A stretch of DNA of 64,000 nt from assembly GCA_947631765.1 (NCBI GenBank), contig CANRMP010000001.1, forward strand, positions 139,587 to 203,586, in the 5' to 3' direction. Shown here in pieces: positions 4,317 through 38,154 of the stretch; within the stretch, counting starts at the first letter, position 1; each line of letters starts with the position of its first letter. A program made the translations under genes and the position numbers. Origin of the DNA: an uncultured Clostridia bacterium (lineage in GTDB: Bacteria > Bacillota > Clostridia > Oscillospirales > CAG-272). The notes under the pieces are model-generated. The model was not told the DNA's origin, did not search any database, and saw nothing but the letters and a program-made list of their open reading frames with translations.

Positions 4317-4503
4317 TCTTGTTACCTCACTTGCGATGCCACTATTTTATCACAAAATCCCGCGCTTGTAAATAGAAAAAATGTTTATGTTGAAAAAAAG
4401 ACCATTTTGAGCTGCTATAATTGGATATTTGTGCAGAGTTTATGATTTTACCTTGAATTTAATTGTAAACTTGATTATAATGAACAAAAAAAGGAGAGTA
4501 CCT

Positions 4504-5508
4504 ATGAGAAAACGAATACTCATTTTACTTTTAATTATATCGATTTTGACTTCTACGCTTAGCGTTTTGGCTTTTGCCGACGAATTTGCAAGGCAAACAA
4601 TAGAGGTCGGAAGCGCGACGGTTGACGGTGAAATATCAAGCGGTGAATGGGACAAAGCCGAAAAAATCGCCGTAAACCGTGCGGCGACTGCGGATTGCAG
4701 GGACAAGCAATGCGTCGAGGGCGCTTCTACAGTCTCTTTTCGCGCCATGTGGGACGCAAGTCACCTCTATCTGCTTTTTGAGATAGAGGACGATCAATTG
4801 GTTGTGAACGAAAATAAATCGACCTCATACAGAAACGACAGCGTTTTTGTGTATATCGGTGAGGACGATTCGGATTTTTCTTCTTATTCCGACGCGACTT
4901 ATATGCTGTGTCTGTTCCCGTATTTTGAGGAGACCGACTACGACAGCTATAACGAAAACGGAAAATCCGGCACAATTATCTGCCGTAACGGCGAACACGA
5001 CGTAACAAAGGATCAATACAAATGCCGCATAACCGGAAACGAGGAGAGCGGATATTCAATAGTAATGGAGGCTGCCATTGCTTTTGGCGCTGTAAATCCG
5101 GTGGGGGATATGTCCATTGCCTTTGATATTCAATACAACGATTCAAATAGTGCCAAATACGGCTCCACCGAGAACAACCGTGAAGCGATATGGACCTGGT
5201 CGGCAGTAGGCGGGGACAATAAAGGACCCGTTACAAACTTTTCTCTGTGGGGCGCAATGAAGCTGTCCGACCCCGAAGGGAGCATAACGCCGCCCGAGGA
5301 CCCCGAACCGACTCCCGATAATCCCGAGGTGACAACGACAAAGGCGACGGGTTCCGAAAATACGCCGACAGTTACGGATAAACCTTCATCAAATGTCGAA
5401 AATAAAGACGGCTCCTCCTTGGTATTGCCCATTGTAATCGCAATTTTGGCGGTGGTCGTCGTCGGAGCTGTAATTGCAGTGGTTGTTGTCAAGAAAAAGA
5501 AAAGCTGA
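4504..5508 (+). CDS. Surface protein with a CBM9/DOMON-like sugar-binding domain, a Pro/Thr linker and a C-terminal TM anchor
   Basis: I prefer the ATG at 4504, which has AGGAGAG 6 nt upstream, over the track start at 4429. Signal peptide MRKRILILLLIISILTSTLSVLAFA. Motifs EWDKAE and FRAMWDASHLYLLFEIEDD are CBM9-like. PEDPEPTPDNPEVTTT linker, then the hydrophobic tail VLPIVIAILAVVVVGAVIAVVVV-KKKKS. Confidence 0.6.
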   Translation: MRKRILILLLIISILTSTLSVLAFADEFARQTIEVGSATVDGEISSGEWDKAEKIAVNRAATADCRDKQCVEGASTVSFRAMWDASHLYLLFEIEDDQLVVNENKSTSYRNDSVFVYIGEDDSDFSSYSDATYMLCLFPYFEETDYDSYNENGKSGTIICRNGEHDVTKDQYKCRITGNEESGYSIVMEAAIAFGAVNPVGDMSIAFDIQYNDSNSAKYGSTENNREAIWTWSAVGGDNKGPVTNFSLWGAMKLSDPEGSITPPEDPEPTPDNPEVTTTKATGSENTPTVTDKPSSNVENKDGSSLVLPIVIAILAVVVVGAVIAVVVVKKKKS

Positions 5509-5589
5509 GCTTTAAGTTAACAAATACCGTACATGCAAAGCCAAGACTCGCAGATTGTACGAATTTTGAAATTTTTCACGGAGAAAAAT

Positions 5590-7767
5590 ATGAAAGTGTT
5601 AAAAACAGCTTCTTCATTGCTGCTGGTTGTCGTTCTTCTGCTGCAATTTACAGCCTGCAAGAATGAGGGAAAAAACGAACGGGAGGAGCCTGATGTGTTC
5701 ACCTATTCAACAGAAGATGAAAGCGGTTACGATCTGTGGCTTCGCTACCCTACCGTTTCTTCGGCAAACTATCTCAAAAAGGCGAGGGAGCTTATAAGCT
5801 ACATATTGATGCCTGATACCTCGCGTGAGGTGCTGTACAGCGCATATTCGGAGCTTCAAAGGGGGCTTTCCGGACTGCTCGGAACAGACGAAATTCCGAC
5901 AAAGGAAGAAATAGACAAGTCGGGAGCGCTGATACTCGGTGTGGCGGATGATCCCATTGTTTCGGAAATTGCCTCAAAAAACAGTCTTTCGGTGACCGAT
6001 ACCGACGGCTATTTAATAAAAAAGGTCAATATTAACGGCAGTGATGCGACGCTGATTTTGGGTCAGAGCGACAGCGGAGTTCTTTACGGGGCTTTCAAGC
6101 TCCTTGAAATACTTTCAACACAGGAGGATATTTCCTCACTTAGTGTTTCTGACGCGCCGAAAATCAAGTGGCGTGTTCTTAACCAATGGGATAACTGGGA
6201 CGGCAGTATTGAGCGAGGGTACTCGGGTAAATCGATATACGACTGGGGAACGCTTCCCAAAATAAAAGACAGCCGCCTAACGGATTTCGCCCGTGCTAAC
6301 GCCTCTGTCGGAATCAATACCGTTGTGATAAACAACGTCAATACAAGCAACAACTATATAAACAGCAGGTATTTAAGCAAGATTGCCGCCGTTGCCGACG
6401 TGTACAGGCGCTACGGCATACGCCTTGCGCTAAGCGTAAATTTTGACGCGCCCTCGGCTTTAGGAAATCTTACTACCAACGACCCGCTAAGTAAAGACGT
6501 TATCAAATGGTGGCAGGATAAGACTGCCGAGATATATGCGGCAATTCCGGATTTTGCGGGGTTCCTTATAAAGGCGGATTCCGAGGGGCGCTCCGGTCCC
6601 TCAAAGTATCAGCGCACCCACGCCGAGGGAGCTAATATGCTCGCCGACGCGCTTGAGCCGTACGGCGGTATAGTAATGTGGCGCGCTTTCGTTTACGGCG
6701 ACGTTGCAAAAAAGCTCTCGGACGATATATGCAATCAGTCGTATGAGTTCTTTAAACCGCAGGACGAACAATTTAAGGATAATGTGATAATTCAAAGCAA
6801 GAACGGTCCCCGCGATTTTCTGCCCCGTGAGCCTGTTTCACCGCTGTTTGGCGGAATGAAGCAGACAAATATGGGAATTGAGTTTCAGATTACACAGGAA
6901 TATACGGGGCAAAATACCGATCTTTGCTATCTTGTCTCTCAATGGAAATACTATCTTGATTTTGACCTGATGCTAAATGACAGCCCGAAGGATATTCCCA
7001 CAACGCTTTCTCAGATTTTGCAGGGAAATATCTATTCAGAGACAAACACGCTGATAGCGGGAGTTTCCAATGTCGGTAGCTGCGAGAGCTGGAATGACGG
7101 ACTGCTGTCTCAGGCAAACTGGTACGGATTCGGCAGGCTGGCATGGAACCCGGAGCTTACAGAAAAGGAAATCACCGAGACTTGGATCAAAATGACCTTC
7201 AATAATCAGGAAGACGTGGTGAATACAATTTCAAAAATTCTCTACGGCTCCTGGGAGCTGTATGAATCGTACACCTCACCCTATGCAATGGGCATGACGG
7301 CTGCGGTGAGCAACCATTACGACCCCGACCTGTCCTATCGCAACAGTAACGGCACAATTTGTGTGGATCGCGCGGGGATAGGAAATAATCGCAGCTCTAC
7401 AAGTAAAGGAAATAAAACCGACGCCACCGCGCAGTACTCCGAGGAGCTTGCGGCAATTTTAAATAACATTGACACCTGCCCCGAGGAGCTTATATGTTGG
7501 TTTCACCATGTTTCGCCAAAGCGGGTAATGTCAAACGGCAAAACCCTTATCGACAATATTTACGAGGGGCTTGTAGCTGCGCCTCAGGCGGTTTCGGATA
7601 TGAAAACGGCGATTTTGTCGCTGAAAGGGGAAATAGATGACAAGCGGTTTGCAATGATTGTTAAGGATTTTGACGAGCAATATAATAACAGTACGCGCTG
7701 GTCAGAGGCAATGATAAAGTTTTTTGAACAGCAAACAAAAATTACCTGTACCGCACAGGGCAGCTGA
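5590..7767 (+). CDS. aguA: GH67 alpha-glucuronidase, predicted lipoprotein
   Basis: Start chosen at MKVLKTASS (5590). Lipobox LLQFTAC. GH67 hallmark strings GYDLWLRY, LNQWDNWDGSIERGYSG, FLIKADSEGRSGP and GIEFQITQEY. Confidence 0.88.
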   Translation: MKVLKTASSLLLVVVLLLQFTACKNEGKNEREEPDVFTYSTEDESGYDLWLRYPTVSSANYLKKARELISYILMPDTSREVLYSAYSELQRGLSGLLGTDEIPTKEEIDKSGALILGVADDPIVSEIASKNSLSVTDTDGYLIKKVNINGSDATLILGQSDSGVLYGAFKLLEILSTQEDISSLSVSDAPKIKWRVLNQWDNWDGSIERGYSGKSIYDWGTLPKIKDSRLTDFARANASVGINTVVINNVNTSNNYINSRYLSKIAAVADVYRRYGIRLALSVNFDAPSALGNLTTNDPLSKDVIKWWQDKTAEIYAAIPDFAGFLIKADSEGRSGPSKYQRTHAEGANMLADALEPYGGIVMWRAFVYGDVAKKLSDDICNQSYEFFKPQDEQFKDNVIIQSKNGPRDFLPREPVSPLFGGMKQTNMGIEFQITQEYTGQNTDLCYLVSQWKYYLDFDLMLNDSPKDIPTTLSQILQGNIYSETNTLIAGVSNVGSCESWNDGLLSQANWYGFGRLAWNPELTEKEITETWIKMTFNNQEDVVNTISKILYGSWELYESYTSPYAMGMTAAVSNHYDPDLSYRNSNGTICVDRAGIGNNRSSTSKGNKTDATAQYSEELAAILNNIDTCPEELICWFHHVSPKRVMSNGKTLIDNIYEGLVAAPQAVSDMKTAILSLKGEIDDKRFAMIVKDFDEQYNNSTRWSEAMIKFFEQQTKITCTAQGS

Positions 7768-13299: not shown

Positions 13300-13328
13300 T
13301 TGACAACAAAGATATTATGTGGTAAACT
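13300..13328 (+). promoter_or_regulatory. Candidate sigma-A promoter for the lysozyme/cohesin gene pair
   Basis: TTGACA (13300-13305), a 17-nt spacer, then TAAACT (13323-13328). This leaves a leader of about 165 nt. Confidence 0.45.
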
Positions 13329-13497: not shown

Positions 13498-15984
13498 ATG
13501 AAAAGACATGTTATTTGTATCATTGTGATTGCCGTAATATTGCTGATTTTCTGTTCTTTTCCCGCAAGCGCCCTCGAAAGCTCTCTTTCGGGTGTTGAAA
13601 TCACAAAGGAAAAAGACGGGTCGAATGCGACGTCATTTACCGTATATGCAGATCAGTCGATGATAGGAAAGATGAATTTAAGCTCCGAGGGGCTTGCCCT
13701 GCTCAAAAGCTTTGAGGGTTATTCAAAATATCCTTATTCCGACTATTCACGCTGGTCTATAGGATACGGCTCGTATGTGTGCTCCATTGACGACGACCCG
13801 TATGAGATTTACCCCAACGGCATATCCAAAATCGAAGCCGAGGAGCTTCTGATGTCAAAACTCGGAAGTTACATAAAATCGGTCAACAAACTTGCAAGTG
13901 ATTACGGCATCGCGCTAAATCAGAATCAGTTTGACGCTCTTGTAAGCTTCACTTACAATTTAGGCGCAAACATCTGGAAAAGGGACGCATCTGATTTTAC
14001 GGTAAAAAGGCTCCTTATAAGCGGAGAATATACCCCGGAGGAGATGGCGGACGCATTTTATATGTGGCGAAACGCCGGGGGAAAAGAAAACGCTGGGCTT
14101 GCAAAGCGCAGACGGCGCGAGGCGGCGCTTTTTAACTCACAAATCAACGTATCCGACCCCGCAAAGGACGGCTACAGCGTAAAATATTACATTGTCAACA
14201 CAAATCTCCTTACCGTGAGGAGTGAGGAGGATACCTCAAGCTCATCTCTCGGCTCGATAAGAAAAAATAACGTTATCCCTATTCTGTATACCAACGAGGC
14301 GGGGAGCCTCGGATTTACCACCTACGCCGCTTATTTCGGCTGGGTATCGATGAAAAATCTCGTGCCTCTTCCGGAAAACTCTGCCATTTCAGTGGCAGGT
14401 GAAGACGATATCGACGAACAGGGAATATTCTACACCTTTGACGAAAATAATATGACCGCCATGGTGGGAGATAACGGAGAAGCCAAGAACAACTCCAAAT
14501 ATGACGGAACGTACAGCGGGTACGTGTATCTCACAAAATATATTTTCCGTTCGGGCAAGGTATACACGCTGACTGCAATAGGTGAAAACGCGTTTACCGA
14601 ATGCTCGACTTTAAAGAAAATTTATATTCCCGCAAGCGTCACGCATATTGCAGACGGCGCCTTCGACCTTTCGGGGCTCGGTGATATTTACTATCCCGGC
14701 GGAAGCTATGCGGAGGAATACGCGAAAAGCAGTCCTTTTAAGGGCACAAACTACAATTGCAGAGCCTCTCACACATACGGCGCATGGAAGATTGTCGATT
14801 GCGGTAACGACACTACACCCCATTACGAGGAGAGCGTGTGTTCTGTTTGCGGGGAGGTAAGGCAGAGAACGGTTATTTCGATATACGTTTCCTCTGTGCC
14901 TGACAAGACCGAATATTATCAGGGAGACAGCTTTGATGTTACGGGCATAAAGGTATCGGCAAAATTCGACGACGGCTCGGACACCGATATCACCTCCTTT
15001 GTAAAATACAGCGGCTTTGACAGCTCAAAGCTCGGGAACAAGGAAATTAAGGTTAAATACGGATCCTTTGATACAAGCTTTACAATAAGAGTGAATAAAA
15101 AGACTCTTGTCGGGATATCGATATCAAAAACCCCGAAAAAGACCACTTTTATCGAGGGAATACCCGTCGATTACAGCGGTCTTGAGGTGCTTGCGCATTA
15201 CGACAACAATTCAAGCGAGGTTATAAAGGAATACGATATTTCGGAGTGTGATATAAACCTTGTCGGAAAACAAACCGTAACCGTCACATATAACGGCTTC
15301 AAGGCGTCTTTTGCAGTAACCATTAAAGCAAAATCGGTAAAGAGCGTCTCAATTGTTAGCTCTCCGTATAAAACCGAATATTACTGCGGCGAAAGCTTTG
15401 ACTTTGACGGGCTTACAATGCACGTTATATACGATAACGGTACCGAAGAGACGGTCGAAGAGGGATTTAGCGTTACAGGATTTAACAACAATACGCCCGG
15501 AGAAAAAAAGGTTCGCTTGTATTTCGGTGGAAAGTACAGCAATATAAAGGTACTTGTAATTCTTAACCGCTTTGTCAGCGACATCTACAAAATCACAAAG
15601 GATAACAAGTGCCTTGTCGGCAAAAACACAACGGTCGGCGCCTTTGTTTCGGCTTTTGAGGCTTCGGACAGAATTGAGATAGTCGGGGCAGACGGAAAAG
15701 CGCTTCCAAAACAAAGCCTTGTCGGCAGCGGATGCCGTGCGATACTCTGGTATAACGAGGATAAGCTTGCCGAGTTTATCGTCTCTGTAAAAGGAGATCT
15801 TAACGGAGACGGGTGCGTGTCCTTTAGCGATTATCTGATGATGAATCGCCATTTCACCTCTCAAATCAAAGACGTTAACACGATGATATACGATATAAAC
15901 AGCGACGGACAGTTTACTCTTGCCGATCTTGTCTGCCTGCTGTCTGAGATCAAAATCAACAACAAGGATGAGCAGTCCGCATAA
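13498..15984 (+). CDS. Secreted multidomain muramidase: GH24-like lysozyme, SH3b-like, BspA-type LRR, 3 Ig-like repeats, C-terminal dockerin
   Basis: Signal peptide ending PASA. Lysozyme block LALLKSFEGYSKYPY...SIGYGS...NQNQFDALVSFTYNLG. LRR block LTAIGENAFTECSTLKKIYIPASVTHIADGAF. Three repeats of about 75 aa (YYQGDSFDVTGIKV, FIEGIPVDYSGLEV, YYCGESFDFDGLTM). Dockerin duplicate Ca-loops DLNGDGCVSFSD and DINSDGQFTLAD. Confidence 0.8.
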   Translation: MKRHVICIIVIAVILLIFCSFPASALESSLSGVEITKEKDGSNATSFTVYADQSMIGKMNLSSEGLALLKSFEGYSKYPYSDYSRWSIGYGSYVCSIDDDPYEIYPNGISKIEAEELLMSKLGSYIKSVNKLASDYGIALNQNQFDALVSFTYNLGANIWKRDASDFTVKRLLISGEYTPEEMADAFYMWRNAGGKENAGLAKRRRREAALFNSQINVSDPAKDGYSVKYYIVNTNLLTVRSEEDTSSSSLGSIRKNNVIPILYTNEAGSLGFTTYAAYFGWVSMKNLVPLPENSAISVAGEDDIDEQGIFYTFDENNMTAMVGDNGEAKNNSKYDGTYSGYVYLTKYIFRSGKVYTLTAIGENAFTECSTLKKIYIPASVTHIADGAFDLSGLGDIYYPGGSYAEEYAKSSPFKGTNYNCRASHTYGAWKIVDCGNDTTPHYEESVCSVCGEVRQRTVISIYVSSVPDKTEYYQGDSFDVTGIKVSAKFDDGSDTDITSFVKYSGFDSSKLGNKEIKVKYGSFDTSFTIRVNKKTLVGISISKTPKKTTFIEGIPVDYSGLEVLAHYDNNSSEVIKEYDISECDINLVGKQTVTVTYNGFKASFAVTIKAKSVKSVSIVSSPYKTEYYCGESFDFDGLTMHVIYDNGTEETVEEGFSVTGFNNNTPGEKKVRLYFGGKYSNIKVLVILNRFVSDIYKITKDNKCLVGKNTTVGAFVSAFEASDRIEIVGADGKALPKQSLVGSGCRAILWYNEDKLAEFIVSVKGDLNGDGCVSFSDYLMMNRHFTSQIKDVNTMIYDINSDGQFTLADLVCLLSEIKINNKDEQSA

Positions 15985-15999
15985 AAGGAAAAAAACAAA

Positions 16000-17439
16000 A
16001 TGAATTTATCTTCCGAAAAAACAAAGCTGCTTGAAAGAGCGATAGTTGTCATATTGGCTTGTCTTATACTTTTCGGCGCCTTTTACACTTCGTACGCGGA
16101 AGGGGAAAACCCCGACGCGGCGCCGCAGGTCGGCGAAAATGAAGACAGCGGCGGAAATGAGCCTGAAGAAGAGACGGGGGATATTAAAATATCCTTCCCC
16201 GAGAAAATATGGCCGGGCTCGGAATTTGAGATAACGCTGTCGGCAAACCTTCCTCTTTCATACGCCGTTTTCGGAAGCATAAGCTTTGAGAGCGACGCTC
16301 TGAATTTCATCGAGTGCCGCGGGGCAGTCCCCGAATGGACTCTGACCCACACGGAGGACGGGTCGACAATAACCTATCTCTGTGTTGACACGCTGCTCTC
16401 CCATAAGGCGGATGGTATGACAGATATTTTGGTGATAAAATTTGCCGCCCGCTCGGATATTCCCGCCGATTCTCTTATCACTTTTAATGTATCCAACCTG
16501 ACGGCGTCCGACGGTGCGGGCGAGACTGTTATTGAAGGCGGAGAGTTTTCAAAAAACCTTTCCCCGGCGCTTAGTCACCCAGCAGGGCTTCAAAGCCTGT
16601 TTGTCAGGGGAAAAAGAGGGGAAGAGTCGGTTGACTATAACGTGGTTCCCGAATTTGACCCGGCGGTTACCGATTATACCGTTTATGTCGATGATATCGG
16701 CGATGAGTTTGAAATGGTATATACCTGCGACGAGTACTCAAGCGCTATTGAAAACAGAATATATACCGACGGCAAGCTCAGCTCATGCGAGCTTAATGTA
16801 ACGTCGGAGGACGGCTTTGAGGGGAGAAAATACATAATATCTTTTTCGGAAATTCAACCTCCCGCCAAAGACGAGAACGAATCAAACGCAAAAATAAAGG
16901 AAATAAGCCTTTCAAACGGTCTGCTCTCACCGAAGTTTTCAGCCTCGGCTTTTGAGTACACGGTTTACATAACCTCAAGTATTGACAGCGTTATAATATC
17001 CGCCCTGACGGAAAGTCCGGACGCCGTTGCCTCAAATTTGACTCTTGATATCAAAAGCGGGGAGAGGCAGGTGTTGACTTGCACCGCAAAGGACGGAACT
17101 GCTTTGGAATATTATTTTACCGTCAAGGTGATAAGCGAGAGGGCTTACGCTGAGCTTGCGGGAGATAATGTTACCGATACTCCAAACTTAAGCTTAAGTT
17201 TGCCGATAATCCTTATTATTCTTTTTGCCGTCGCTTTCACGGGCTTTTTTGTGGGCTTTATAATTGCCGCCGCGGTTAAGAAAAATTCGGGCAAGAGAAC
17301 AGGAAAAAGCAGTAGAGACCTAAAGCTATACGGCAAAAACAGCCTGTACAAAACCGACGCCGCGCCGCTTGACCTTGAGAAAAAGGAAGAAGCCCCTGTC
17401 GACAAGTCGGCAGACAAGGACAAACCGGAGGAGCAATAA
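16000..17439 (+). CDS. Membrane-anchored surface protein: cohesin-like domain, two cadherin-like beta-sandwich repeats, C-terminal TM and charged tail
   Basis: N-terminal hydrophobic segment and an acidic linker. A roughly 130-aa beta-rich module (IKISFPEKIWPGSEFEITL...ILVIKFAARSDIPADSLITFNVSNLTASDG) follows a cohesin-like pattern. Two repeats contain the P.F.P....Y.V.V motif (VVPEFDPAVTDYTVYV, LLSPKFSASAFEYTVYI). TM helix LPIILIILFAVAFTGFFVGFIIAAAV, then a K/E/D-rich tail. Confidence 0.6.
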   Translation: MNLSSEKTKLLERAIVVILACLILFGAFYTSYAEGENPDAAPQVGENEDSGGNEPEEETGDIKISFPEKIWPGSEFEITLSANLPLSYAVFGSISFESDALNFIECRGAVPEWTLTHTEDGSTITYLCVDTLLSHKADGMTDILVIKFAARSDIPADSLITFNVSNLTASDGAGETVIEGGEFSKNLSPALSHPAGLQSLFVRGKRGEESVDYNVVPEFDPAVTDYTVYVDDIGDEFEMVYTCDEYSSAIENRIYTDGKLSSCELNVTSEDGFEGRKYIISFSEIQPPAKDENESNAKIKEISLSNGLLSPKFSASAFEYTVYITSSIDSVIISALTESPDAVASNLTLDIKSGERQVLTCTAKDGTALEYYFTVKVISERAYAELAGDNVTDTPNLSLSLPIILIILFAVAFTGFFVGFIIAAAVKKNSGKRTGKSSRDLKLYGKNSLYKTDAAPLDLEKKEEAPVDKSADKDKPEEQ

Positions 17440-17460: not shown

Positions 17461-18312
17461 ATGAGCAAAATGACCAAGGAAGAATATCAGGGCGAATTTG
17501 CCTTGATGGTCGATGAGCTGAGCTGTAAGGAAGGCATAAAATACGACGCGCTTTGCAGAATATCCGAAAGCTTTTTAAGACCCTATATCGCAAACCGGTG
17601 CTACAGATATTCAAGCTTAAGGCAGTCGGGTATTGAGGACGATATATTTCACGACGTACTTATAAGACTTATAAAATCCTGTATTGACCAGTTTCTCTAC
17701 AAGGACGGTACGCAAAACTACGATCCCGAGGGCTTTTTAAGGTGGATATATACGGTTGCCCGCAACGTCATAATCGATACCGCCAAGGACTACGGCGCAA
17801 AAAGCTGTACCGAGGTCGGCATTGTAAACGATGACGGAGAGATAATTGACATTCCGAGCGTTGATGACCCCTTTATGTCAATAGAAGCCGCCGACACCTT
17901 AAAGGATTGCCTTAGAACCGTACTTTCTCTTGATTCTTCGCTCCACATTGTCTTTACATGGATAATAAGAGCCATACTTCTTGCAAGATGCGACCTTTCA
18001 CTTGAGGAAAAATATATTGCGGATACCAAAATAAATGCGCTTGTGGTAAAAACCTTTAAGGATTTGACACTCAATGAGATTTACGCCGTGATACTGCTTG
18101 AGGCAAAAAAGCTTGAATGGCTTAGTATCAGCGAGGCGGACAACAAAAGAATCACCCGCATTCTTGAATCTGAGAATACAAACGGAAAATCAATAGGCAA
18201 CACGGTATATTCGGAATTTTTTATGAAAAAAGGGGCGAACGCCACAATAAGCGATTGGGTGAACCGCACAAATATGCGCATAATAAAAGCGGCAAACGCC
18301 GAAGTGCTTTGA
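17461..18312 (+). CDS. Divergent sigma-70 family (ECF-like) sigma factor
   Basis: Region-2-like string DDIFHDVLIRLIK...FLRWIYTVARNVIIDTAKD. The C-terminal ISDWVNRTNMRIIKA resembles region 4.2. At 283 aa it is longer than a classical ECF sigma and has a non-canonical middle part. Confidence 0.55.
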   Translation: MSKMTKEEYQGEFALMVDELSCKEGIKYDALCRISESFLRPYIANRCYRYSSLRQSGIEDDIFHDVLIRLIKSCIDQFLYKDGTQNYDPEGFLRWIYTVARNVIIDTAKDYGAKSCTEVGIVNDDGEIIDIPSVDDPFMSIEAADTLKDCLRTVLSLDSSLHIVFTWIIRAILLARCDLSLEEKYIADTKINALVVKTFKDLTLNEIYAVILLEAKKLEWLSISEADNKRITRILESENTNGKSIGNTVYSEFFMKKGANATISDWVNRTNMRIIKAANAEVL

Positions 18313-18323
18313 AAGGAGGCAGT

Positions 18324-18575
18324 ATGGAACATCCGAGTCTTGAAAAAATCATACGCTTTATTTCCTTTGATGAGCTAAACGAAGAAAATTTAAGCCTTGC
18401 ATCCGAGATAAATCTTCACATGATCGAATGTGCCGACTGCCGCAAGAAAATTCAGTCGATACAAAACACCCTGCAAAGCCTTCTGACATATTCACAGGTG
18501 AAAAATTTGGACGTTTCGGATATGAGTATTGACGACGATATTCAGTCGGAGCTTAACGATTTTTACAGCGAGTAA
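18324..18575 (+). CDS. Small soluble anti-sigma-like protein (zf-HC2 / ZAS-type motif)
   Basis: The ATG at 18324 has AAAGGAGG upstream, 11 nt after the sigma gene stop. The sequence EINLHMIECADCRKKI contains H-x3-C-x2-C at the usual N-terminal position. There is no TM segment, and the tail is acidic. Confidence 0.5.
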   Translation: MEHPSLEKIIRFISFDELNEENLSLASEINLHMIECADCRKKIQSIQNTLQSLLTYSQVKNLDVSDMSIDDDIQSELNDFYSE

Positions 18576-21058: not shown

Positions 21059-22570
21059 ATGAACAAAATTATCGCGCTCTTTCTGTTGCTGGCGCTGGCG
21101 GTGACTACGGTTCCCTTTGTCGCCACGGCGGAAGATACGGCGGCGCAAGCCGAAGAACAGCCCGACGTAATAGAAACGACAATAGCGCTCGGTCCTCACG
21201 TCGGTGACTGGACTGTTGACAATAACACCTACAAGGTAGAGGGAAGCTTGCCCAAGGACGACCAACAGCTGTACGTTCTCGGAAACGCAACAGACGGTGA
21301 AGCGACCATTTCTTCTACTATCAACTCGAGTCGTGACAGAATCGGCTATATGTTCGGTATCACCAACTCCGTAAACTCAAGCACCAACAACAACAAAGCC
21401 GAGGTTGTAAAAAGAGATTCCTATTATCTTATTTGGTTCCGCGGAGACCAAGACAGAAAAGTTCAGATCTATCGCATTGAATCGGAAAATGAACAAAAAA
21501 AGGAGGAGATACAGTCCGGAGTAACCGCGGATACGTTTAAGCTCTCCGCAACATACAAGAAAACCGGCGGAAAGGTCGAAATATCGATTTCTATTGACGG
21601 CAAACCGCTCGTCACCTACACGGATGACAAGCCATTTGACGGTATGGGTTACGGCTTAGCAACCCGCGCACAAAACGGCGACAGAGTTTGGACAGACGTT
21701 CAATACTCGGGTCAGGGCGCAGCGCTCACAGACAACGAGCTTGCCTCTCTTAAAGCAAAGGAGGACAGCAAGCTCACATATGTGAAAGGCTCGGGCTCAA
21801 CATACAATCTGAAAAACTCTAACGGTAACACCGAAGTATACGGCGCCAATTTCAACCCTGATAACCTATTCGGAGTCGGAACCGAGCCGCGCTTCTTTGC
21901 CCAATCCAAAGGCGAGGGCGGCAGCACGCTTTCTACGATCACATGGGAAATGGCTGAGGGTATTCCCGCATATTTCGTTATTAACACCCATACCGGAAGT
22001 ACCAGCGGTCGCTATGCAAAGTGGTTCAAGCTCTACGCTTCAAATACAAATGACGACAGCAGCTGGGATCTTATCGCCGCGTCCTTCAATATAGGTCTTG
22101 ATAAAGACAACGCGACGCTTGGAATCAAAACCACCGCCGACAAGGCGTACAGATATTATAAGTTTGAATTTGTACCGGCTACCGGCGGCTTCTACCAGGT
22201 AGCAAGCTTTGAGCTTTACACCGATTCCGGAGAGCAAACTCTCAGCCATTCGGATAATTCCGCAAACTGCACGTTCTTCTATCAGGTAAGCAATACCAAC
22301 GGCTCAAACTACAGAATTATCGGACTTATCAAGGAAGGATACGTTCCCACCTGCAAGGGCGTTACAATTACATTTACAAATGCAGACGGGCAAACCAGAT
22401 CGAAAACGTTCGGAATTGACGACACGCTGACAGTCTATGAGACAATAGAAGGCACGTCCGGAGGCAAAACGGTTACATACAAAGCATGTAGCGGCTCATA
22501 CATCTTCGGATGGGTTATAACCGGTGTGGAAGATGGATATTTCCCCACAGCGGCAGTAGTTGTAGAGTAA
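21059..22570 (+). CDS. Secreted hypothetical protein (lectin/LamG-like N-domain, discoidin-like central domain)
   Basis: Signal peptide MNKIIALFLLLALAVTTVPFVATA. Beta-rich throughout. YRYYKFEF...FYQVASFELY resembles an F5/8 type C signature. No catalytic motif recognised. Confidence 0.5.
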   Translation: MNKIIALFLLLALAVTTVPFVATAEDTAAQAEEQPDVIETTIALGPHVGDWTVDNNTYKVEGSLPKDDQQLYVLGNATDGEATISSTINSSRDRIGYMFGITNSVNSSTNNNKAEVVKRDSYYLIWFRGDQDRKVQIYRIESENEQKKEEIQSGVTADTFKLSATYKKTGGKVEISISIDGKPLVTYTDDKPFDGMGYGLATRAQNGDRVWTDVQYSGQGAALTDNELASLKAKEDSKLTYVKGSGSTYNLKNSNGNTEVYGANFNPDNLFGVGTEPRFFAQSKGEGGSTLSTITWEMAEGIPAYFVINTHTGSTSGRYAKWFKLYASNTNDDSSWDLIAASFNIGLDKDNATLGIKTTADKAYRYYKFEFVPATGGFYQVASFELYTDSGEQTLSHSDNSANCTFFYQVSNTNGSNYRIIGLIKEGYVPTCKGVTITFTNADGQTRSKTFGIDDTLTVYETIEGTSGGKTVTYKACSGSYIFGWVITGVEDGYFPTAAVVVE

Positions 22571-22783: not shown

Positions 22784-25700
22784 TTATTGGCGCTTGATTT
22801 CGCTGATATCTATGGTGTGAAGGCTGTTGTCAAAATAGAATTCGCCCTCATACGGCATTTTGTCAAGGCAGGTAAGATTTTTATCTGACAGCGAAGCCGA
22901 AATAATGAATTTTGATGCTCCCTTTGTATAGCTCATTTTAAACGCGGGAAAAGCTGCGCACAATTTAGGTCGGATTGTGAAGCGGTCGCCGCAGTCCTTA
23001 AGCCCTATGACAAAGTTAAGATACAGCATATAAAATATTCCGAGAAACGAAGGGTCGCTTTCCGCATAGGAAGGGCATAGCAAGACCAGCTTTGAAACAG
23101 CCTTGTTAAAGCTTCCCTCAAAGATGAGGCGGCATATTTCAAGCATCGGGTCGTTTGATGATAAAAAGGACTCTCTATCGATACTCGGGATATCAAGTCG
23201 CTCGTTCATTTGTCGGCATACCGGCTCGTACATCTTGCAGACAAGATATTTGATAAGTCTTGATATATCCGAATCATTGCCGTAATTTTCAATTGCCCTT
23301 ATTCCGTGCATGTAGACGCTTTCTTTTATCGTGCCGTCAAAATAGGGTATTTTTTCTTTGAGAAATTCGACATCTCCGCTTGTCCTGAAATACTCGGCTA
23401 TTGCGGCGGAAAGGATAATGCCGTCACTGCCGCTCTTTTCAAAAGAGGCGGCGTATTCGATAATTGTTTCTTTGAAGAGCTCGGGGTTTGTGACCGAGAG
23501 AACCGGAAAGCCGTATATGCGCTTGTCAACTTCCTCGCAAAGACCCGAGAAAAATTCGGGTATTCTGTGGCAAACCAAGTGGTCACATTCTTTTAAAGGG
23601 CTGTATATTATAATGCTCGGTCGGTCTGCCACAGGTCCCTCACAGCCGGAAGGGCAGGAGTATTTTTCGTTTGCCGCGTAGAATATCCGAGGCGACTTGT
23701 CATACAGCCCTACAATAATAATTTGCTTGTCTGCGCCCTTACAGGGCTTTGAGACAAATAAGGTGTGCTCTGAGTAAAATCCGCGCCATACCGAGCGATA
23801 AAGCAGGGAGCCTTGCTCTTGTATGCATTTGCAAAGTCTCGGGTCGGACTCCATAGAAAAGGGAATAAGGTCAAGCGCGGCTTCAACCCTCTCGCCGCAC
23901 ACCCTTATTACGAGTACTTGAAGCTCATCGTCAATAAAAATCTCGCACCTTATATCGCACCCCTCAATTTGCCCCACAAAGCTTACAAGATTGTCGCTTT
24001 TTTCTATTGTGTGGCAGGAGGCTAAAAGGTCGTACTTGTTGCCCTTGACAAGCACGCACAGCCGCATAAAGCATGTCAGCGGGTGTGAGTTTTGATAAAG
24101 GGCGATAAGGCGGCTGCTTGAAAGCTTAATTTGCATTTTGCGCCCGAGGCAAAAGTCAATTTCGCACGGCAATAATTCTCTGTAAAAGACCGCCTTTGAG
24201 CTTGTCAAACAGCCGTATGCGGTTTTGTGGGAAGAGGGCAAAGCGTTGCGGGAGGGAGGCGCACACCTAACTACAAGAGTCGGCTCTATCTCTCTTATTT
24301 GATTTAAAACGCTGCGAAAATAACACTCGGGGGAGAGAAAATCCTTGTCGCTGATAAACATTGCCGAAAACGCTTCAAGGGCGCTTGTACTTTGCTCGTC
24401 GTAATCTAAAATAAGGTCGTTTGGCAAAAGCATGGGGCGCACTTTTTCTTTTGTCTCCTCATTTTTGCAAATGACAAAAAGCTTTAGGTGAATTCCCGTC
24501 AAAGACAGTTCATTTACCGCACGGGAAAGGGAAGAAACAAGGGTAATATTGCGTAAATCAGAAGGACACAGGGCGCATACATAGCTAAAGGCGGCGCAGT
24601 CGAATTTTTGGAGCTCCATAGGGCTTACGTCGGGAAGGTCTCTGACCGCTCCCGCCTTAAAGAGAAGAGCGGCAAGCAGTGCTTCCTTTTCCATTACCCG
24701 CCGATAGGTTTTATTATAAGCTTTGCAGCTTTGGAACCGAGAGAGCGCCTCTTTTTCGTTTTCGGCAACGCCGACATAAAACGAGCATCTGAAAATTCCG
24801 TCGGGACATTCCTCAAATACACCGATTTTATAATTATCTCCTTCTTTAGATACGGCGGCGCTGTTAAAGGAGGTGAAAATTACGGTTTTATCGGGAGTTT
24901 GCAAAATAAAGCGGTCATCTTTTATTTTTATATCCTCCTTTGAGCAAAATTCAAGGCAGGCGTTTATTCTGCAAAACGCACCTTTGACGGTAAGAGATAT
25001 TTCGCAAAAGGGCGGCCCCTTCGGCTTTATTATTTTGGCGCTTGATACAATATCACTATGATTTGAAAGGTATTCCGTACATTCGTCGCTGTAGTAAAAC
25101 TCCCCTTCAAAGGCGGCAAAATGCGCCCTTTCGGTGGAAAAGGTCAGCTTTACCGAATTTGCGGTATCTTTCATGTCATATTCTTTAAAGCAGTTTGCTG
25201 TCAGCTCTTTACCCTCTGAAAGAAACATGAGATGACCGCATGAGGAGGCAAAAAAAGAGAGCGATTTATCTCCCGTGGCACAAAGGCTCGGGACAGCGTA
25301 TTTGAGCTTTTTGTCGTCTTTCGGCTTGTCGGTTTTCATAATAAGCTCGGATACCTTGAATTTCGCAAATGACCTTACGCCCTCGGCGCGAAGAAGGTAA
25401 AGATACGGGTTTGCATATTTGCTCCGGCAAAATCTCCTGACAAACACATTGTCGCATGAGTAGTTTGCCGTGGCGACCACCGACATACAAAGGTGTAAGA
25501 GATTGTAGCACCGCACCACGGTTTTCTCGGCGCAGGTGAAATCCACAGCCTCATAAAAGCCGTATTTTCCGAGTGCTTTTTCCTTTCTGAAGTTAAAAAG
25601 AAGAGCCATTGAGGATATTTTAAAGTGCGTCAGGAAAAGAAATGCGGCGTACGGGGAGTATATCTCTTTGCCGATAACTCCCGCATAAGAGAGCTTTTCA

Positions 25701-28351
25701 ATTCCGTTTTCAGAAAAAATATAGTTCATGTTGTTGTCAAGTCTTCCGGTGTGGCAGGAGGTGACTCCCCACAGCCCTCTTTTTGAATAGGCGATATTTT
25801 TTCTGAATACCTTGCTTACAGTGCGCGAAAACAACGTGTCGGGGAAAAGAGGCAAAAACAGGAAGGGGAGCATATAGCTCATGGCGCTTCCGGTTTCGGA
25901 CAGGATTTTAAGCGTCGGGTCAATTTGCAAAAAGTCTTTCTTTTTTGCCGCCGAGGCGAAAAAAGCGGCGGGAAGAGTAGAAATACTCGTCATTTGACCC
26001 CTGTCGCAAGCTCTTGTAATATCAAAGCCTTCAATAAGCCTTTCGCACCTTGCAATTAATATGTCGTCCTCGGGCAATACCTCCCTAAGCCCTTCGTAAA
26101 GGCATATAAGGCAGGTTAAAAGATTCCCGTTTTCTTCGGCAAGAATTGCTTTTGCCCCCGTGGGCGAAAGGGCTTTGACAAAATAGCGGTCATAATACAG
26201 ACCGTAAGAGGTCGGGAGGCGCTCAATAAAAGAAAGCGTATCGGCGATTATCGGATAGCAGGCGGCAACCCGCTCTTTTCCGAGGTCGCAAAACGCCAAA
26301 AGCGAGGTGAGATACAGTCCAAGCTCAGTAGGAGTTATTTCTCTTTCTGTCTCTTTTAAGGGCAAGGCTACGAGTGCGCCATTGCCCACAATGAAATCAT
26401 GCGCGCCGTTTATATGTTTTTCAAGCAGTTTTTGGGGAGTCGGCTTATTTTGTCTTTTGTACATTCCGCCAAGATACAGCACAAAAAGAGGAGCTATAAG
26501 CCAAGTAAGCGCTATATACGGCAAAATATTAAGTCCTAAAAAGACAATACCGCATCCGAGCGCCGACAGCGTGAAAGCGAAAAAATGCTTTGCGCTGTCT
26601 TTTTCCTGCTTTTTCTCGCTTTTTTTCAAAACAATTGCCCCGAAGGCGCAAAACAGACTTTCAAAAAATAAAAAGGGAATAAGAGACACTGCACAGAACG
26701 CCGCAATAATAAAGTCGCATGCAAATGCCAAGCCTTTGCGATTTTCACCCTTTGCAAAGGCAAAACAGATATCTTTTATTATGCCGAAATACGGGATAAA
26801 GCAGAGCAAAAGGGCAAGAAGGTGACACAGGGCAAAAAGATTTAATGCATTTGAAAAAATCAGCAAAAGAAACGCCATTATAGGCGAAAGAGCCGAAAGT
26901 GCCTCGCAAAGCCTTGCCTGTATCAAGCCTTTTTCGCAATTAATAGAGAACTGGGGAAACGAAGGAATACTTTTTCCAAGGTCAAGGGAGGAGGCTTTAA
27001 CGTATGCCTGCGCATGCTCTGTGTACCCGTAGTTCAGCCGCTCTTCTATTTCATCCTCGGGCATTGAGCGCTTGATAAGCAGTGCAAAGGCGATATTGTC
27101 GAAAATGACCGGCGACGATTGTGAATGGCTTTCGTGAAGCGAAATGCGCGAAAATGGCGAGTGCTTTTGCGGAATATAAGCCTTGACTTTTCCGAAAATC
27201 ATTCCCCTTCCGCCGCAAAGCCGGTCTTTTTCAATAATCGGGCGGTTTTGCTTGTGGCTCATTGCCTTAATAAGAGCTTTTATGCATCCCGCGGACGGCT
27301 CACATTCATAGGGAAGAAACAGGGTGTAGGCTGTCACTCCTGTCGCACCTGCGCCTAAAAGGCTGTCAAAAGAGGAGTCGGCGCTTACTATGTCCTGCAT
27401 GTGCGAATAAATGTCACGCGCACAGCAAAAGCGCTTTTTCTCGGGTATATACTGCCTTTTAGGCAGGTAAAAACAAAATCTGTCCCCGTATTTTTTAACA
27501 AGCCTTTCATGCTCGTGCTCAAGCCTTGTAATAATGGCAGAGTCGTCGGGACCTGTAAGACTGCGGCTGTCAGGCAATGTGAGTATTGCCCCATATACAA
27601 GGCTTTTGTCGTCATTTTGAGCTATAAGGCGTTCAAAATAGCGGTAGATTTTGTCGACCCTTGAGCTTTCAATTAATGTTACAACAAGGGTTTTCGGCAG
27701 GTCCTCTATATTTGAGCAGGGGACAAAGCTTCTGCCGTACACTTTCTCAAAGACTCCGGATATAATTGCAAGAACAGGTAAAAAAGAAACCGCGACCGCC
27801 AAAGGAGACCCCAATAAAAGCCCAATCAGCGCACAAATAAAAAGCGCGCTTATCGGAAATACTTTTCGCCTTTTTTTAGAGGTCAGCCCGCAATCGTCTT
27901 TGAGCGAAAAAAGCGCGGCGCCGTCTGTGGCGCTTATCTTGTGAAATGCACAATAGCGCATAACCTTGCGCCTGATTTCGCTTCTTGTTTCGGGAGCTGA
28001 CGTGCGGTATACACTGTTATTTTCAAGTATGCCGCATACCCTTGACAGCAAAGAATAAAGCTCTTCATAGTCGTAGTCAAGGTACAAATTAATGACGTCT
28101 CGTACCTGTTTTGTGCAGACAAGACCGCCTTTTATCGCCCTTTTATATATTTTTTCGACAAACTCGCGCGTTTTGAATATTCCCGCCTCGTCGGTGATAT
28201 TTTCCTTTGCCAAGAGCTTTGCAAGTTCCCGAGGCTCTAAGGTATAATTATTTTCCAAAAGCAGTTTTTCAATTGTTTTGTAATACCTGCCGCGTTTCTC
28301 TCCGGAAAAAAACATAAAAATGTTTCTCCTTTCAGCTTTTGGGGAGAACAC
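22784..28351 (-). CDS. Giant (1855 aa) polytopic membrane protein with a cyclic beta-1,2-glucan synthase-like layout (GT84-like domain and glucan-processing domains)
   Basis: Layout is 2 TM, then a cytoplasmic GT-like block (LVVTLIESSRVD...YGAILTLPDS), then 4-6 TM, then about 1200 soluble residues. The soluble part contains GLWGVTSCH and YGFYEAVDFT, which resemble the GxWGISES and YGFYEAxDYT strings of NdvB/Cgs proteins. This assignment is from memory of motifs only. The start could be 28351 or 28315. Confidence 0.55.
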   Translation of the reverse strand: MFSPKAERRNIFMFFSGEKRGRYYKTIEKLLLENNYTLEPRELAKLLAKENITDEAGIFKTREFVEKIYKRAIKGGLVCTKQVRDVINLYLDYDYEELYSLLSRVCGILENNSVYRTSAPETRSEIRRKVMRYCAFHKISATDGAALFSLKDDCGLTSKKRRKVFPISALFICALIGLLLGSPLAVAVSFLPVLAIISGVFEKVYGRSFVPCSNIEDLPKTLVVTLIESSRVDKIYRYFERLIAQNDDKSLVYGAILTLPDSRSLTGPDDSAIITRLEHEHERLVKKYGDRFCFYLPKRQYIPEKKRFCCARDIYSHMQDIVSADSSFDSLLGAGATGVTAYTLFLPYECEPSAGCIKALIKAMSHKQNRPIIEKDRLCGGRGMIFGKVKAYIPQKHSPFSRISLHESHSQSSPVIFDNIAFALLIKRSMPEDEIEERLNYGYTEHAQAYVKASSLDLGKSIPSFPQFSINCEKGLIQARLCEALSALSPIMAFLLLIFSNALNLFALCHLLALLLCFIPYFGIIKDICFAFAKGENRKGLAFACDFIIAAFCAVSLIPFLFFESLFCAFGAIVLKKSEKKQEKDSAKHFFAFTLSALGCGIVFLGLNILPYIALTWLIAPLFVLYLGGMYKRQNKPTPQKLLEKHINGAHDFIVGNGALVALPLKETEREITPTELGLYLTSLLAFCDLGKERVAACYPIIADTLSFIERLPTSYGLYYDRYFVKALSPTGAKAILAEENGNLLTCLICLYEGLREVLPEDDILIARCERLIEGFDITRACDRGQMTSISTLPAAFFASAAKKKDFLQIDPTLKILSETGSAMSYMLPFLFLPLFPDTLFSRTVSKVFRKNIAYSKRGLWGVTSCHTGRLDNNMNYIFSENGIEKLSYAGVIGKEIYSPYAAFLFLTHFKISSMALLFNFRKEKALGKYGFYEAVDFTCAEKTVVRCYNLLHLCMSVVATANYSCDNVFVRRFCRSKYANPYLYLLRAEGVRSFAKFKVSELIMKTDKPKDDKKLKYAVPSLCATGDKSLSFFASSCGHLMFLSEGKELTANCFKEYDMKDTANSVKLTFSTERAHFAAFEGEFYYSDECTEYLSNHSDIVSSAKIIKPKGPPFCEISLTVKGAFCRINACLEFCSKEDIKIKDDRFILQTPDKTVIFTSFNSAAVSKEGDNYKIGVFEECPDGIFRCSFYVGVAENEKEALSRFQSCKAYNKTYRRVMEKEALLAALLFKAGAVRDLPDVSPMELQKFDCAAFSYVCALCPSDLRNITLVSSLSRAVNELSLTGIHLKLFVICKNEETKEKVRPMLLPNDLILDYDEQSTSALEAFSAMFISDKDFLSPECYFRSVLNQIREIEPTLVVRCAPPSRNALPSSHKTAYGCLTSSKAVFYRELLPCEIDFCLGRKMQIKLSSSRLIALYQNSHPLTCFMRLCVLVKGNKYDLLASCHTIEKSDNLVSFVGQIEGCDIRCEIFIDDELQVLVIRVCGERVEAALDLIPFSMESDPRLCKCIQEQGSLLYRSVWRGFYSEHTLFVSKPCKGADKQIIIVGLYDKSPRIFYAANEKYSCPSGCEGPVADRPSIIIYSPLKECDHLVCHRIPEFFSGLCEEVDKRIYGFPVLSVTNPELFKETIIEYAASFEKSGSDGIILSAAIAEYFRTSGDVEFLKEKIPYFDGTIKESVYMHGIRAIENYGNDSDISRLIKYLVCKMYEPVCRQMNERLDIPSIDRESFLSSNDPMLEICRLIFEGSFNKAVSKLVLLCPSYAESDPSFLGIFYMLYLNFVIGLKDCGDRFTIRPKLCAAFPAFKMSYTKGASKFIISASLSDKNLTCLDKMPYEGEFYFDNSLHTIDISEIKRQ

Positions 28352-31978: not shown

Positions 31979-32236
31979 ATGGAAAAACGCGTTGCAATTA
32001 TCGGAATAATAGTGGAGAACACCGACTCGGTCGAAAAGCTCAACTCTATTCTTCACGAATACGGAAGCCTTATAATAGGGAGAATGGGGATCCCGTACAG
32101 AGAAAAAAATATAAACATAATAAGTATTGCGCTTGACGCTCCTCAGGACGTTATATCAAATATTTCCGGGAGAATAGGAAATCTGCCGGGAGTAAGCGTC
32201 AAGACCGCATTTTCAAATGTGATAACCAATGAATGA
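31979..32236 (+). CDS. TM1266-family putative iron-only hydrogenase system regulator (ACT/NikR-C-like small protein)
   Basis: 85 aa. RVAIIGIIVEN...LNSILHEYGSLIIGRMGIPYREKNINIISIALDAP...GVSVKTAFS matches my recollection of the family. It sits directly before hydE. Confidence 0.8.
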   Translation: MEKRVAIIGIIVENTDSVEKLNSILHEYGSLIIGRMGIPYREKNINIISIALDAPQDVISNISGRIGNLPGVSVKTAFSNVITNE

Positions 32237-33284: not shown

Positions 33285-33324
33285 AAATAAAGTATAACGC
33301 CAAATAAGGCGAAAAGGAGAAAAA

Positions 33325-34773: not shown

Positions 34774-34782
34774 GGAGAATGT

Positions 34783-36345: not shown

Positions 36346-36529
36346 TAATACCGGAAATACCTCTGACCTGTCAGGCGTAACGGGGACGACTGCTCCGACA
36401 GTAACGACAGATCCCACTCAATCACAAGAGCCGATTCCCGACAGCCAAGGCTTGCTGTACGAGTTGAACGAAGCAGGCGATGCGTACACGGTTGTCGGAA
36501 TTGCGGAATCCGCAAATTCCGATATTGAA

Positions 36530-38030: not shown

Positions 38031-38154
38031 GGTGCTGTGGAGTACTTACCGACATTTATTATGGCGGAAACGAGACGCAATGGGCAGAAATACTGTCTGA
38101 TTATAACGACATCCCCGAAACCGCAACTATACATTACAACAGCAAATAATAATA

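Follow-up and report, generated by a model that had tools for sequence, protein, structure and literature searches.

A Conserved Gene Pair Encoding a Dockerin-Bearing GH24 Muramidase and a Membrane-Anchored Divergent Cohesin, a Putative Surface Tether in an Uncultured Clostridia Bacterium

Cell-bound cohesins that capture secreted, dockerin-bearing enzymes are known from the anchoring scaffoldins, such as OlpA, OlpB, OlpC, and SdbA of C. thermocellum, ScaE of R. flavefaciens, and Sca2 and Sca5 of R. bromii. "Anchoring scaffoldins" with a single cohesin and a C-terminal transmembrane (TM) helix occur in Lachnoclostridium sp. MSJ-17, H. luporum, C. cibarium, R. difficilis, and Ruminococcus sp. 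HUN007, according to two reports (PMC11557425; PMC13463774). Peptidoglycan hydrolases have their place in this literature too. The list established for R. flavefaciens FD-1 holds a GH24 (glycoside hydrolase family 24)-dockerin protein, 28 leucine-rich repeat (LRR)-dockerin proteins, and transglutaminase-dockerin proteins (Rincon 2010; PMC2930009); dockerins fused to putative lysozymes and D-Ala-D-Ala carboxypeptidases are found in the rumen, together with a competition hypothesis (PMC6487960); R. champanellensis ScaK joins a cohesin to a GH25 lysozyme (as cited in PMC6780208 and PMC13463774); and PMC6403190 proposed a "lyticome," giving the idea its name. We analyzed a 64,000-nt stretch of DNA from an uncultured Clostridia bacterium (GenBank assembly GCA_947631765.1, contig CANRMP010000001.1, positions 139,587 to 203,586), hereafter the window, in which a secreted muramidase with a C-terminal dockerin (gene 1) is encoded next to a membrane protein with an N-terminal cohesin (gene 2). 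As judged from domain content, structure prediction, and conserved adjacency, these genes probably, if by no means surely, encode a private cohesin-dockerin pair by which the producer displays an active muramidase on its surface, with a cell-bound cohesin capturing a secreted dockerin enzyme as in anchoring scaffoldins. The first-pass annotation of this DNA had regarded a dedicated cohesin system for a peptidoglycan hydrolase as not known to be described, which was too strong a claim, as the sources cited above already contain its ingredients.

Gene 1 (positions 13498-15984, 828 amino acids) is an open reading frame (ORF) for a secreted, multidomain GH24 muramidase, and gene 2 (16000-17439, 479 amino acids) one for a type-I membrane protein; positions given without a locus name refer to the window, those of genes 1 to 4 and their features to its + strand. 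The gap between them is 15 nt, the start of gene 2 thus being the 16th base, which agrees with the spacing first annotated, and an AGGA ribosome-binding site precedes gene 2. On the + strand, terminator-like sites were seen only at 13100, upstream of gene 1, and at 14114, within gene 1, and none at the ends of the genes or between them. The domain matches of both genes, which are detailed below, are far beyond chance.

The cohesin module of gene 2 (16177-16575) is divergent. It has no direct match to Pfam Cohesin, and neither gene 2 by itself nor a profile of two sequences retrieved a cohesin from Pfam, NCBIfam, or PDB sequences; a word-index homolog search with gene 2 returned two matches only. 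A hidden Markov model (HMM) built from residues 55-195, aligned with a relative of 47 % identity, was used in an exhaustive search of 1.84 billion representatives and retrieved 76 proteins at E < 1e-3. A Pfam Cohesin domain is present in 54 of these 76 proteins and a Cadherin-like domain in 58; most family members have both a signal peptide and, at the C-terminus, a TM helix, and those looked up in source databases are unnamed or called "hypothetical protein." Two orthologs, P0011 (30.6 bits) and the gene 2 protein of locus L012 (29.4 bits), score above the Pfam Cohesin cutoff of 24.1 bits. Compared with the PDB, a 38-sequence profile of the N-domain matched the cohesins of C. cellulolyticum CipC and C. 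perfringens NagJ (best E-value 4.8e-7) and of A. cellulolyticus ScaB (about 2e-5). Likewise, the AlphaFold2 (AF2) model of the domain, built on the alignment behind that profile (pLDDT 94.3, pTM 0.87), is all-beta, with 10 strand elements, and has the flattened beta-sandwich (jelly-roll) of the nine-stranded cohesin fold (PF00963). In a Foldseek search of the PDB with this model, the top 27 matches, and 31 of the top 32, were cohesins, the best being the C. perfringens GH33 cohesin 2vo8 (E 5.5e-9, TM-score 0.75-0.78). We conclude that, by transitive homology and predicted fold, the N-domain of gene 2 is a cohesin; because the window protein itself escapes Pfam, its membership at the sequence level rests on transitive homology. 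The first-pass annotation had described the domain as cohesin-like and had named the lack of a cohesin fold as grounds for dropping the idea; the family profile, the AF2 model, and the Foldseek matches all uphold that description. Of the Pfam matches it had proposed to look for, Phage_lysozyme and the dockerin were obtained in gene 1, whereas Cohesin was obtained in relatives and orthologs of gene 2 rather than in gene 2 itself. More generally, divergent cohesins that Pfam misses can be recovered by profile searches combined with structure prediction.

The rest of gene 2 is that of an outward-facing membrane protein. The signal peptide (16000-16098), delineated from the sequence and from ortholog N-termini, is predicted to be cleaved after the YA of a conserved YA-E, and is followed by an acidic linker of 26 amino acids (16099-16176). 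Behind the cohesin lies a stalk of two cadherin-like beta-sandwich repeats (16585-17154), as first annotated. Pfam Cadherin-like matches one of them weakly (residues 303-380, E 5.9e-4), and the first repeat is deduced from internal similarity (E 0.002) and from orthologs whose first repeat passes Pfam, the cadherin-like repeats of orthologs scoring 30-53 bits. A hydrophobicity scan places the C-terminal TM helix at about residues 400-427 (17197-17280). It is followed by a charged, poorly conserved cytoplasmic tail (17281-17436) with 13 K/R and 11 D/E, the K/R-rich part being beside the membrane. No LPXTG-type motif and no SLH Pfam match were detected in gene 2. The anchor is thus as first annotated, a TM helix with a charged tail in place of SLH domains or a sortase motif, except that the tail measures 52 amino acids and not 60.

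The catalytic domain of gene 1 (13675-14142) matches Pfam Phage_lysozyme over residues 70-208 (E 1.8e-23; 83.6 bits against a cutoff of 22.3) and, in a PDB sequence search, solved GH24 lysozymes and muramidases (9kbq, 3.3e-17; muramidase 8b2s, 2.2e-12). It contains the motif E73-x8-D82-x4-S87, whose residues correspond to E11, D20, and T26 of T4 lysozyme. The catalytic motif E-x8-D-x4-S/T is present in all eight aligned orthologs, with Thr in L014, and E73 and D82 are invariant in 30/30 orthologous clusters. The catalytic residues of gene 1 are therefore intact, and muramidase activity is predicted from them. The whole architecture recurs in about 30 orthologous clusters, and Pfam matches to Phage_lysozyme, LRR_5, Big_3, and Dockerin_1, all above their cutoffs, bear out the initial description of a dockerin-bearing GH24 muramidase with an LRR and three Ig-like repeats.

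At its N-terminus, gene 1 carries a Sec signal peptide (13498-13575) read from the sequence as MKRHVICIIVIAVILLIFCSFPASA, with cleavage before LE, and the N-terminal hydrophobic segment is kept in orthologs. The catalytic domain is followed by an SH3b-like segment (14170-14382), for which the first-pass call holds for many orthologs, in which SH3_3 (PF08239) is found, and less firmly for the window protein, in which SH3_3 is weak (E 0.13). Next come a BspA-type LRR region (14395-14733; LRR_5 at residues 358-400, 29.0 bits against a cutoff of 27.7), which also matches LRR proteins of the PDB such as 4gt6, and a Cys/His knuckle (14740-14871, residues 415-458) whose C421, H425, C448, and C451 are all invariant in 30/30 orthologs. 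No significant Pfam family was found for the knuckle, a ZnF_RZ-type match being at chance level (E 0.28); it is probably a small Zn-binding module. Beyond it extend three Big_3 Ig-like repeats (14875-15567; three stretches, Pfam Big_3 1.5e-28), which form a stalk, and a module of no known Pfam family (15568-15786) that is kept in orthologs at 29-63 % identity. A unit of about 40 amino acids akin to the knuckle (H-x-Y...W...C...C-x-x-C-G) is repeated many times in the lysozyme protein of locus L017 (L017 7001-9334), and likewise in a second cohesin-TM protein of locus L014 (3510-5012, − strand). This unit may represent an undescribed extracellular Zn-ribbon repeat.

The C-terminal dockerin of gene 1 (15787-15951; Dockerin_1, PF00404, residues 765-814, 33.8 bits against a cutoff of 22.9) consists of a duplicated segment of about 22 residues with two Ca-binding loops, read as DLNGDGCVSFSD and DINSDGQFTLAD, and the solved dockerins 6kg9 and 2y3n were matched in a PDB sequence search. 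A dockerin loop has D or N at positions 1, 3, and 5 and D at position 12, and a helix comes after it. D767, D771, G772, D778, D799, D803, and D810 are invariant in 30/30 orthologs. As both these loop Asp/Gly residues and the catalytic E73 and D82 are invariant in the 30 orthologs, enzyme and dockerin must both be under purifying selection. The two halves of the dockerin are asymmetric, the second, TL(A/S/T)D(L/M)VC(L/M)L, being better conserved among six syntenic orthologs, which hints at a single binding mode. Classical type I dockerins are dual-mode, and the asymmetric halves of gene 1 are unlike them. Dockerin types are defined by their partner cohesins and by phylogeny; here the label "type I" has the Pfam family name as its sole support. 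The gene 2 cohesin is nearest to the non-cellulosomal cohesins of C. perfringens and then to type I cohesins.

Full-length orthologous loci were found in three contexts: that of the window, shared with L001, L003, L005, L007, and L011; that of L012/L013; and that of L014/L015. In all eight distinct complete loci examined, gene 2 follows gene 1 on the same strand, with gaps of 5-64 nt. In the first context, a four-gene block comprising genes 1 and 2 and two smaller downstream genes (genes 3 and 4, see below) lies between tex and rplU in L001, L003, L005, L007, and L011 as in the window, and partially in L006, whose upstream fragment ends in a dockerin tail matching that of gene 1; gene 1 identity among the six main-context loci is 48-67 %. 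The flanks of L012/L013 (GCA_017463445.1) are entirely different (Ca-ATPase, NrdR) and lack the sigma-like gene 3, and there the lysozyme-dockerin gene is followed after 24 nt by the cohesin-cadherin-TM gene. The gap is 5 nt in L014/L015. In these other contexts, adjacency is kept although identity to the window falls to 34-38 % for gene 1 and to 14-21 % for the cohesin. With family-specific HMMs, exactly one cohesin and one dockerin of the family were detected per locus of the main synteny group, as in the whole 64-kb window, and one further, divergent cohesin in L014. Generic GH24 lysozymes, the sole yield of one metagenome scan, served as a background control: none of 80 such loci (0/80; 426 kb) had a cohesin of the gene 2 family. 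Another metagenome scan gave no matches; in a scan of GTDB genomes, the gene 2 query had no match and the gene 1 query matched one metagenome-assembled genome (MAG), so that the species of the window is missing from the representatives scanned. Among the syntenic loci, L003 comes from a rabbit-gut MAG labelled "uncultured Clostridia bacterium." CANPZU01 and GCA_017463445.1 are among the MAGs with the pair. Conservation of adjacency in eight loci and three contexts supports a cognate pair, and on this comparative basis we regard cognate pairing of genes 1 and 2 as likely.

What is established is the identity of the domains, including the cohesin fold, the intactness of the catalytic residues, and the conserved adjacency of the two genes with a spacing like that of an operon; from this we infer module-module binding and topology as follows. 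Both proteins would be exported by Sec. The gene 2 protein would be retained in the membrane by its C-terminal helix, with the K/R-rich residues that follow the helix on the cytoplasmic side and the cohesin held outward on the two cadherin-like domains. The C-terminal dockerin of gene 1 would then plug into this cohesin in a Ca2+-dependent manner, so that a long stalk (pre-dockerin module, Big_3 repeats, Cys/His knuckle, LRR) would carry the GH24 and SH3b-like wall-binding domains at its distal tip.

Several observations weigh against such a dedicated tether. Identity to the window is 14-44 % for the cohesin and 31-67 % for the dockerin, a gap that does not look like tight co-conservation. Distant relatives of either gene also occur alone: no adjacent cohesin was found beside a short lysozyme-SH3-dockerin protein in L016 or beside the L017 lysozyme-SH3-LRR protein, which has a divergent dockerin-like tail, and no adjacent lysozyme beside the cohesin-cadherin-TM proteins of L008 and L009. 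Since it is distant relatives that are unpaired, the coupling belongs to this orthologous group and not to all dockerin-lysozymes. Further cohesins or dockerins may also exist beyond the 64-kb window. The unpaired relatives of each gene would also be expected if the two genes were neighbors and not partners, the dockerin docking on a scaffoldin encoded elsewhere, as in a cellulosome or amylosome, and gene 2 serving as a general anchor for other dockerin proteins. In published ruminococcal systems, many dockerins, including those of GH24-, LRR-, and transglutaminase-dockerin proteins, share each cohesin; TM-anchored single cohesins with unknown partners have been reported; and the window encodes a GH67 and a CBM9 (carbohydrate-binding module family 9)-like protein, so the organism degrades plant glycans. 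We nevertheless hold this explanation to be quite improbable, given that adjacency persists in three unrelated contexts, down to 34-38 % gene 1 identity and with gaps of 5-64 nt, and that no other cohesin or dockerin is found within the 64-kb window.

Granting the tether, the muramidase may be directed outward or at the cell's own wall. We lean slightly, and only tentatively, toward outward action on foreign or free peptidoglycan, in competition or scavenging, as a minimal "lyticome"; remodelling of the producer's own wall is a possible role to which we give somewhat less credit. Outward action is favored because the catalytic domain is farthest from the anchor, behind about 500 amino acids of adhesin-type LRR/Ig modules, and because published precedents and hypotheses cast dockerin- or cohesin-linked lysozymes as anti-competitor tools. 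The same locus can also be explained by an autolysin tethered as described, with the cohesin confining and positioning a hydrolase used in growth, daughter-cell separation, or sporulation and germination. No immunity gene is evident at the locus, which suits an autolysin and speaks against a weapon, and the locus is single-copy and vertically inherited in a conserved housekeeping neighborhood, from tex to rplU-prp-rpmA and beside spoVA, in six loci, which suits a core autolysin as well as a weapon. Moreover, the SH3b-like wall-binding module lies beside the catalytic domain, homologous lysozyme-SH3 modules in related Clostridia carry SLH self-wall anchors or CHAP and M23 partner domains, and the sigma-like/anti-sigma-like pair in the same operon could respond to envelope state. 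However, an inner-wall enzyme would not need an LRR/Ig stalk of about 500 amino acids, the spoVA and sigma-like neighbors are missing in other contexts (L012, L014), and published work on a cellulosomal GH25 lysozyme reportedly points to action on other species. On balance, a tethered autolysin seems rather doubtful to us. A sporulation-specific role, as suggested at first pass in the form of sporulation-related wall remodelling, was rejected, as its support is limited to the nearby spoVA operon, which is absent from the two other contexts in which the pair occurs.

That the catalytic domain belongs to Pfam Phage_lysozyme, with sub-threshold NCBIfam matches to a gene-transfer-agent endolysin and to SpmX, could also be taken to mean that gene 1 is a prophage endolysin that has degenerated, or else a BspA-like adhesin whose lysozyme fold, no longer catalytic, serves for binding or localizing, as in SpmX. 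The Sec signal peptide, the six extra modules, and the invariance of the catalytic Glu and Asp in 30 orthologs make this explanation barely credible. A prophage endolysin or lysis cassette in particular was rejected: the flanks (tex, spoVA, mgsA, rplU-prp-rpmA) hold no phage genes, and a protein of 828 amino acids is not compact.

Other arrangements of the same building blocks were seen in related bacteria. The lysozyme(-SH3) core is fused there (P0107-P0196) to SLH, Flg_new repeats, CHAP, peptidase M23, or peptidase M14, and P0120 (1319 amino acids) unites M14, lysozyme, Big_3, dockerin, and cohesin in one protein. P0107 is not a clean negative control for the dockerin, because its tail resembles a divergent one (GDADGNG...DFDGSGKVNDWD), though without a Pfam dockerin match. 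In L014 (2009-5012, − strand), 1 kb from the lysozyme pair, lies a second side-by-side pair, made of a transglutaminase-core protein of 492 amino acids with a degenerate dockerin-like tail and a protein of 501 amino acids that combines a cohesin recognized by Pfam with Cys-rich repeats and ends in a TM helix. This second pair suggests that the lineage habitually gives each enzyme a socket of its own. In L009 (8001-11303; GCA_031549535.1), the gene of a distant member of the cohesin-cadherin-TM family precedes those of a canonical extracytoplasmic function (ECF) sigma factor (184 amino acids, regions 2 and 4) and a 381-amino-acid membrane protein, and a dockerin protein of 541 amino acids is encoded 4 kb upstream. 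Cohesin-TM genes beside sigma factors may thus be a recurring arrangement.

In the window, gene 3 (17461-18312, 283 amino acids) starts 21 nt past gene 2 and is tentatively sigma-70/ECF-like. Its scores lie below threshold (Sigma70_r2, 22.2 bits against a cutoff of 24; TIGR02937, 32.5 bits against 42.9); WIYTVARN resembles sigma region 2 and ATISDWVNRTNMRIIKA region 4.2, and one ortholog carries PF04542. A five-sequence profile of gene 3 found nothing in the PDB. Its AF2 model is poor (pLDDT 64.5), and the best Foldseek matches, a chain of a mycobacterial transcription-initiation complex and sigma-E region 2, are not significant. Besides the window, five syntenic loci keep gene 3: L001, L003, L005 (cut short), L007, and L011. 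Gene 4 (18324-18575, 83 amino acids), which follows gene 3 and was also called in L002, is tentatively anti-sigma-like: no match was found in Pfam or the PDB, and H32-x3-C36-x2-C39, a motif of zinc-binding anti-sigma factors, is invariant in three orthologs. We tentatively propose from these motifs that genes 3 and 4 encode an ECF sigma factor and its zinc-binding anti-sigma factor. Both are absent where the pair sits in other contexts (L012, L014), and the family is very narrow, with only 5 clusters among 5.8 billion proteins. It is conceivable, although we think it unlikely, that the four genes constitute a self-contained envelope module, confined to an uncultured Clostridia lineage, in which a muramidase switched on by an atypical sigma/anti-sigma pair is armed only in its private socket, that the lineage uses many adjacent one-to-one pairs as a code by which non-glycan surface enzymes (the muramidase, a transglutaminase-like protease) are addressed, and that the whole is a contact-dependent killing or feeding "lyticome."

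A consensus scan placed a promoter-like site (TTGACA and TAAACT spaced by 17 nt, the −10 being preceded by TG) at 13300-13328 of the + strand, about 170 nt upstream of gene 1; it is a candidate only, because the number of such sites in the region is not above shuffled expectation. The locus is flanked by housekeeping genes, namely tex, mgsA, and the spoVA operon on the one hand and rpmA-prp-rplU and folD on the other, and an Rfam search of the window gave no match. Elsewhere in the window, a protein of 565 amino acids (36452-38149) is almost entirely BspA-type LRR (LRR_5, E 1.3e-137), a module type akin to the LRR of gene 1, and has no dockerin. Two ORFs of the − strand are kept beside the locus in L002, one of 503 amino acids without a Pfam match (21059-22570) and one of 1,855 amino acids with a weak Glycoamylase domain as its sole match (22784-28351). 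The CBM9-like protein and the GH67 alpha-glucuronidase (4429-7767), neither of which has a dockerin, point to a xylan-using organism, and two radical-SAM genes followed by HydF (32229-35991) resemble the HydE/HydG/HydF set of [FeFe]-hydrogenase maturation, which fits a strict anaerobe.

The locus is thus a minimal, conserved case of cellulosome-type glue that is apparently dedicated to one membrane-anchored peptidoglycan hydrolase. Should its binding and activity be borne out, the hypothetical "lyticome" would gain a concrete, testable two-protein system, one group of the orphan TM-anchored single cohesins in gut Clostridia would have its partner, and protein engineers would have a naturally orthogonal cohesin-dockerin pair.

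Compared with cellulosomes and amylosomes, the locus lacks a multi-cohesin scaffoldin, the single cohesin of gene 2 being also the only one in the 64-kb window, where one dockerin is encoded; this sole dockerin is on a GH24 muramidase and not on a plant-polysaccharide or starch enzyme; and a C-terminal TM helix takes the place of SLH or sortase anchoring. With the anchoring scaffoldins, gene 2 shares the cohesin fold, the Foldseek matches including cohesins of OlpC, ScaB, ScaC, and ScaE. Those proteins, however, use SLH or sortase anchors and serve many plant-glycan or starch enzymes, whereas here the gene for one peptidoglycan hydrolase is immediately followed by that for a single cohesin held by a C-terminal TM helix. 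The closest structural and profile matches to the gene 2 cohesin are those of C. perfringens NagJ (GH84) and NanJ (GH33) (2vo8, 2jh2, 2o4e, 2w1n), which, as would be the case here, are used outside plant-biomass degradation. They sit inside secreted enzymes, where they link enzymes acting against host glycans, and are not membrane anchors. The working principle of the locus, if the enzyme is an autolysin, resembles that of the FtsEX-dependent hydrolases (CwlO, PcsB, and RipC, of which CwlO and PcsB are those of Firmicutes), in which a secreted hydrolase is held and positioned by the extracellular domain of a membrane protein. The likeness stops at this principle, the proteins being unrelated and the locus being devoid of ATPase or coiled-coil regulation.

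The single-cohesin anchors with a C-terminal TM helix have the layout of gene 2 (PMC11557425; PMC13463774), but their partners are either unknown or assumed to be glycoside hydrolases, and the available parts of these sources make no mention of an adjacent muramidase-dockerin gene or of a cadherin-like stalk. ScaK, the FD-1 GH24-dockerin protein, the rumen dockerin-lysozymes, and the "lyticome" likewise wire a peptidoglycan hydrolase into a cohesin-dockerin network, for which competition or defense has been proposed. In ScaK, the cohesin is on the lysozyme itself, which is a GH25 enzyme and joins a large cellulosome, whereas here a GH24 enzyme bears the dockerin and is encoded next to a membrane cohesin of its own; the FD-1 and rumen proteins are catalogue entries without an assigned partner, while an adjacent membrane cohesin is present here. 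A partial literature search found no description of a conserved operon combining a muramidase-dockerin with its own membrane cohesin, which is weak evidence of novelty. The separate ingredients have thus all been published, and what appears to be new is their union in a dedicated, conserved operon, often together with a sigma-like/anti-sigma-like pair.

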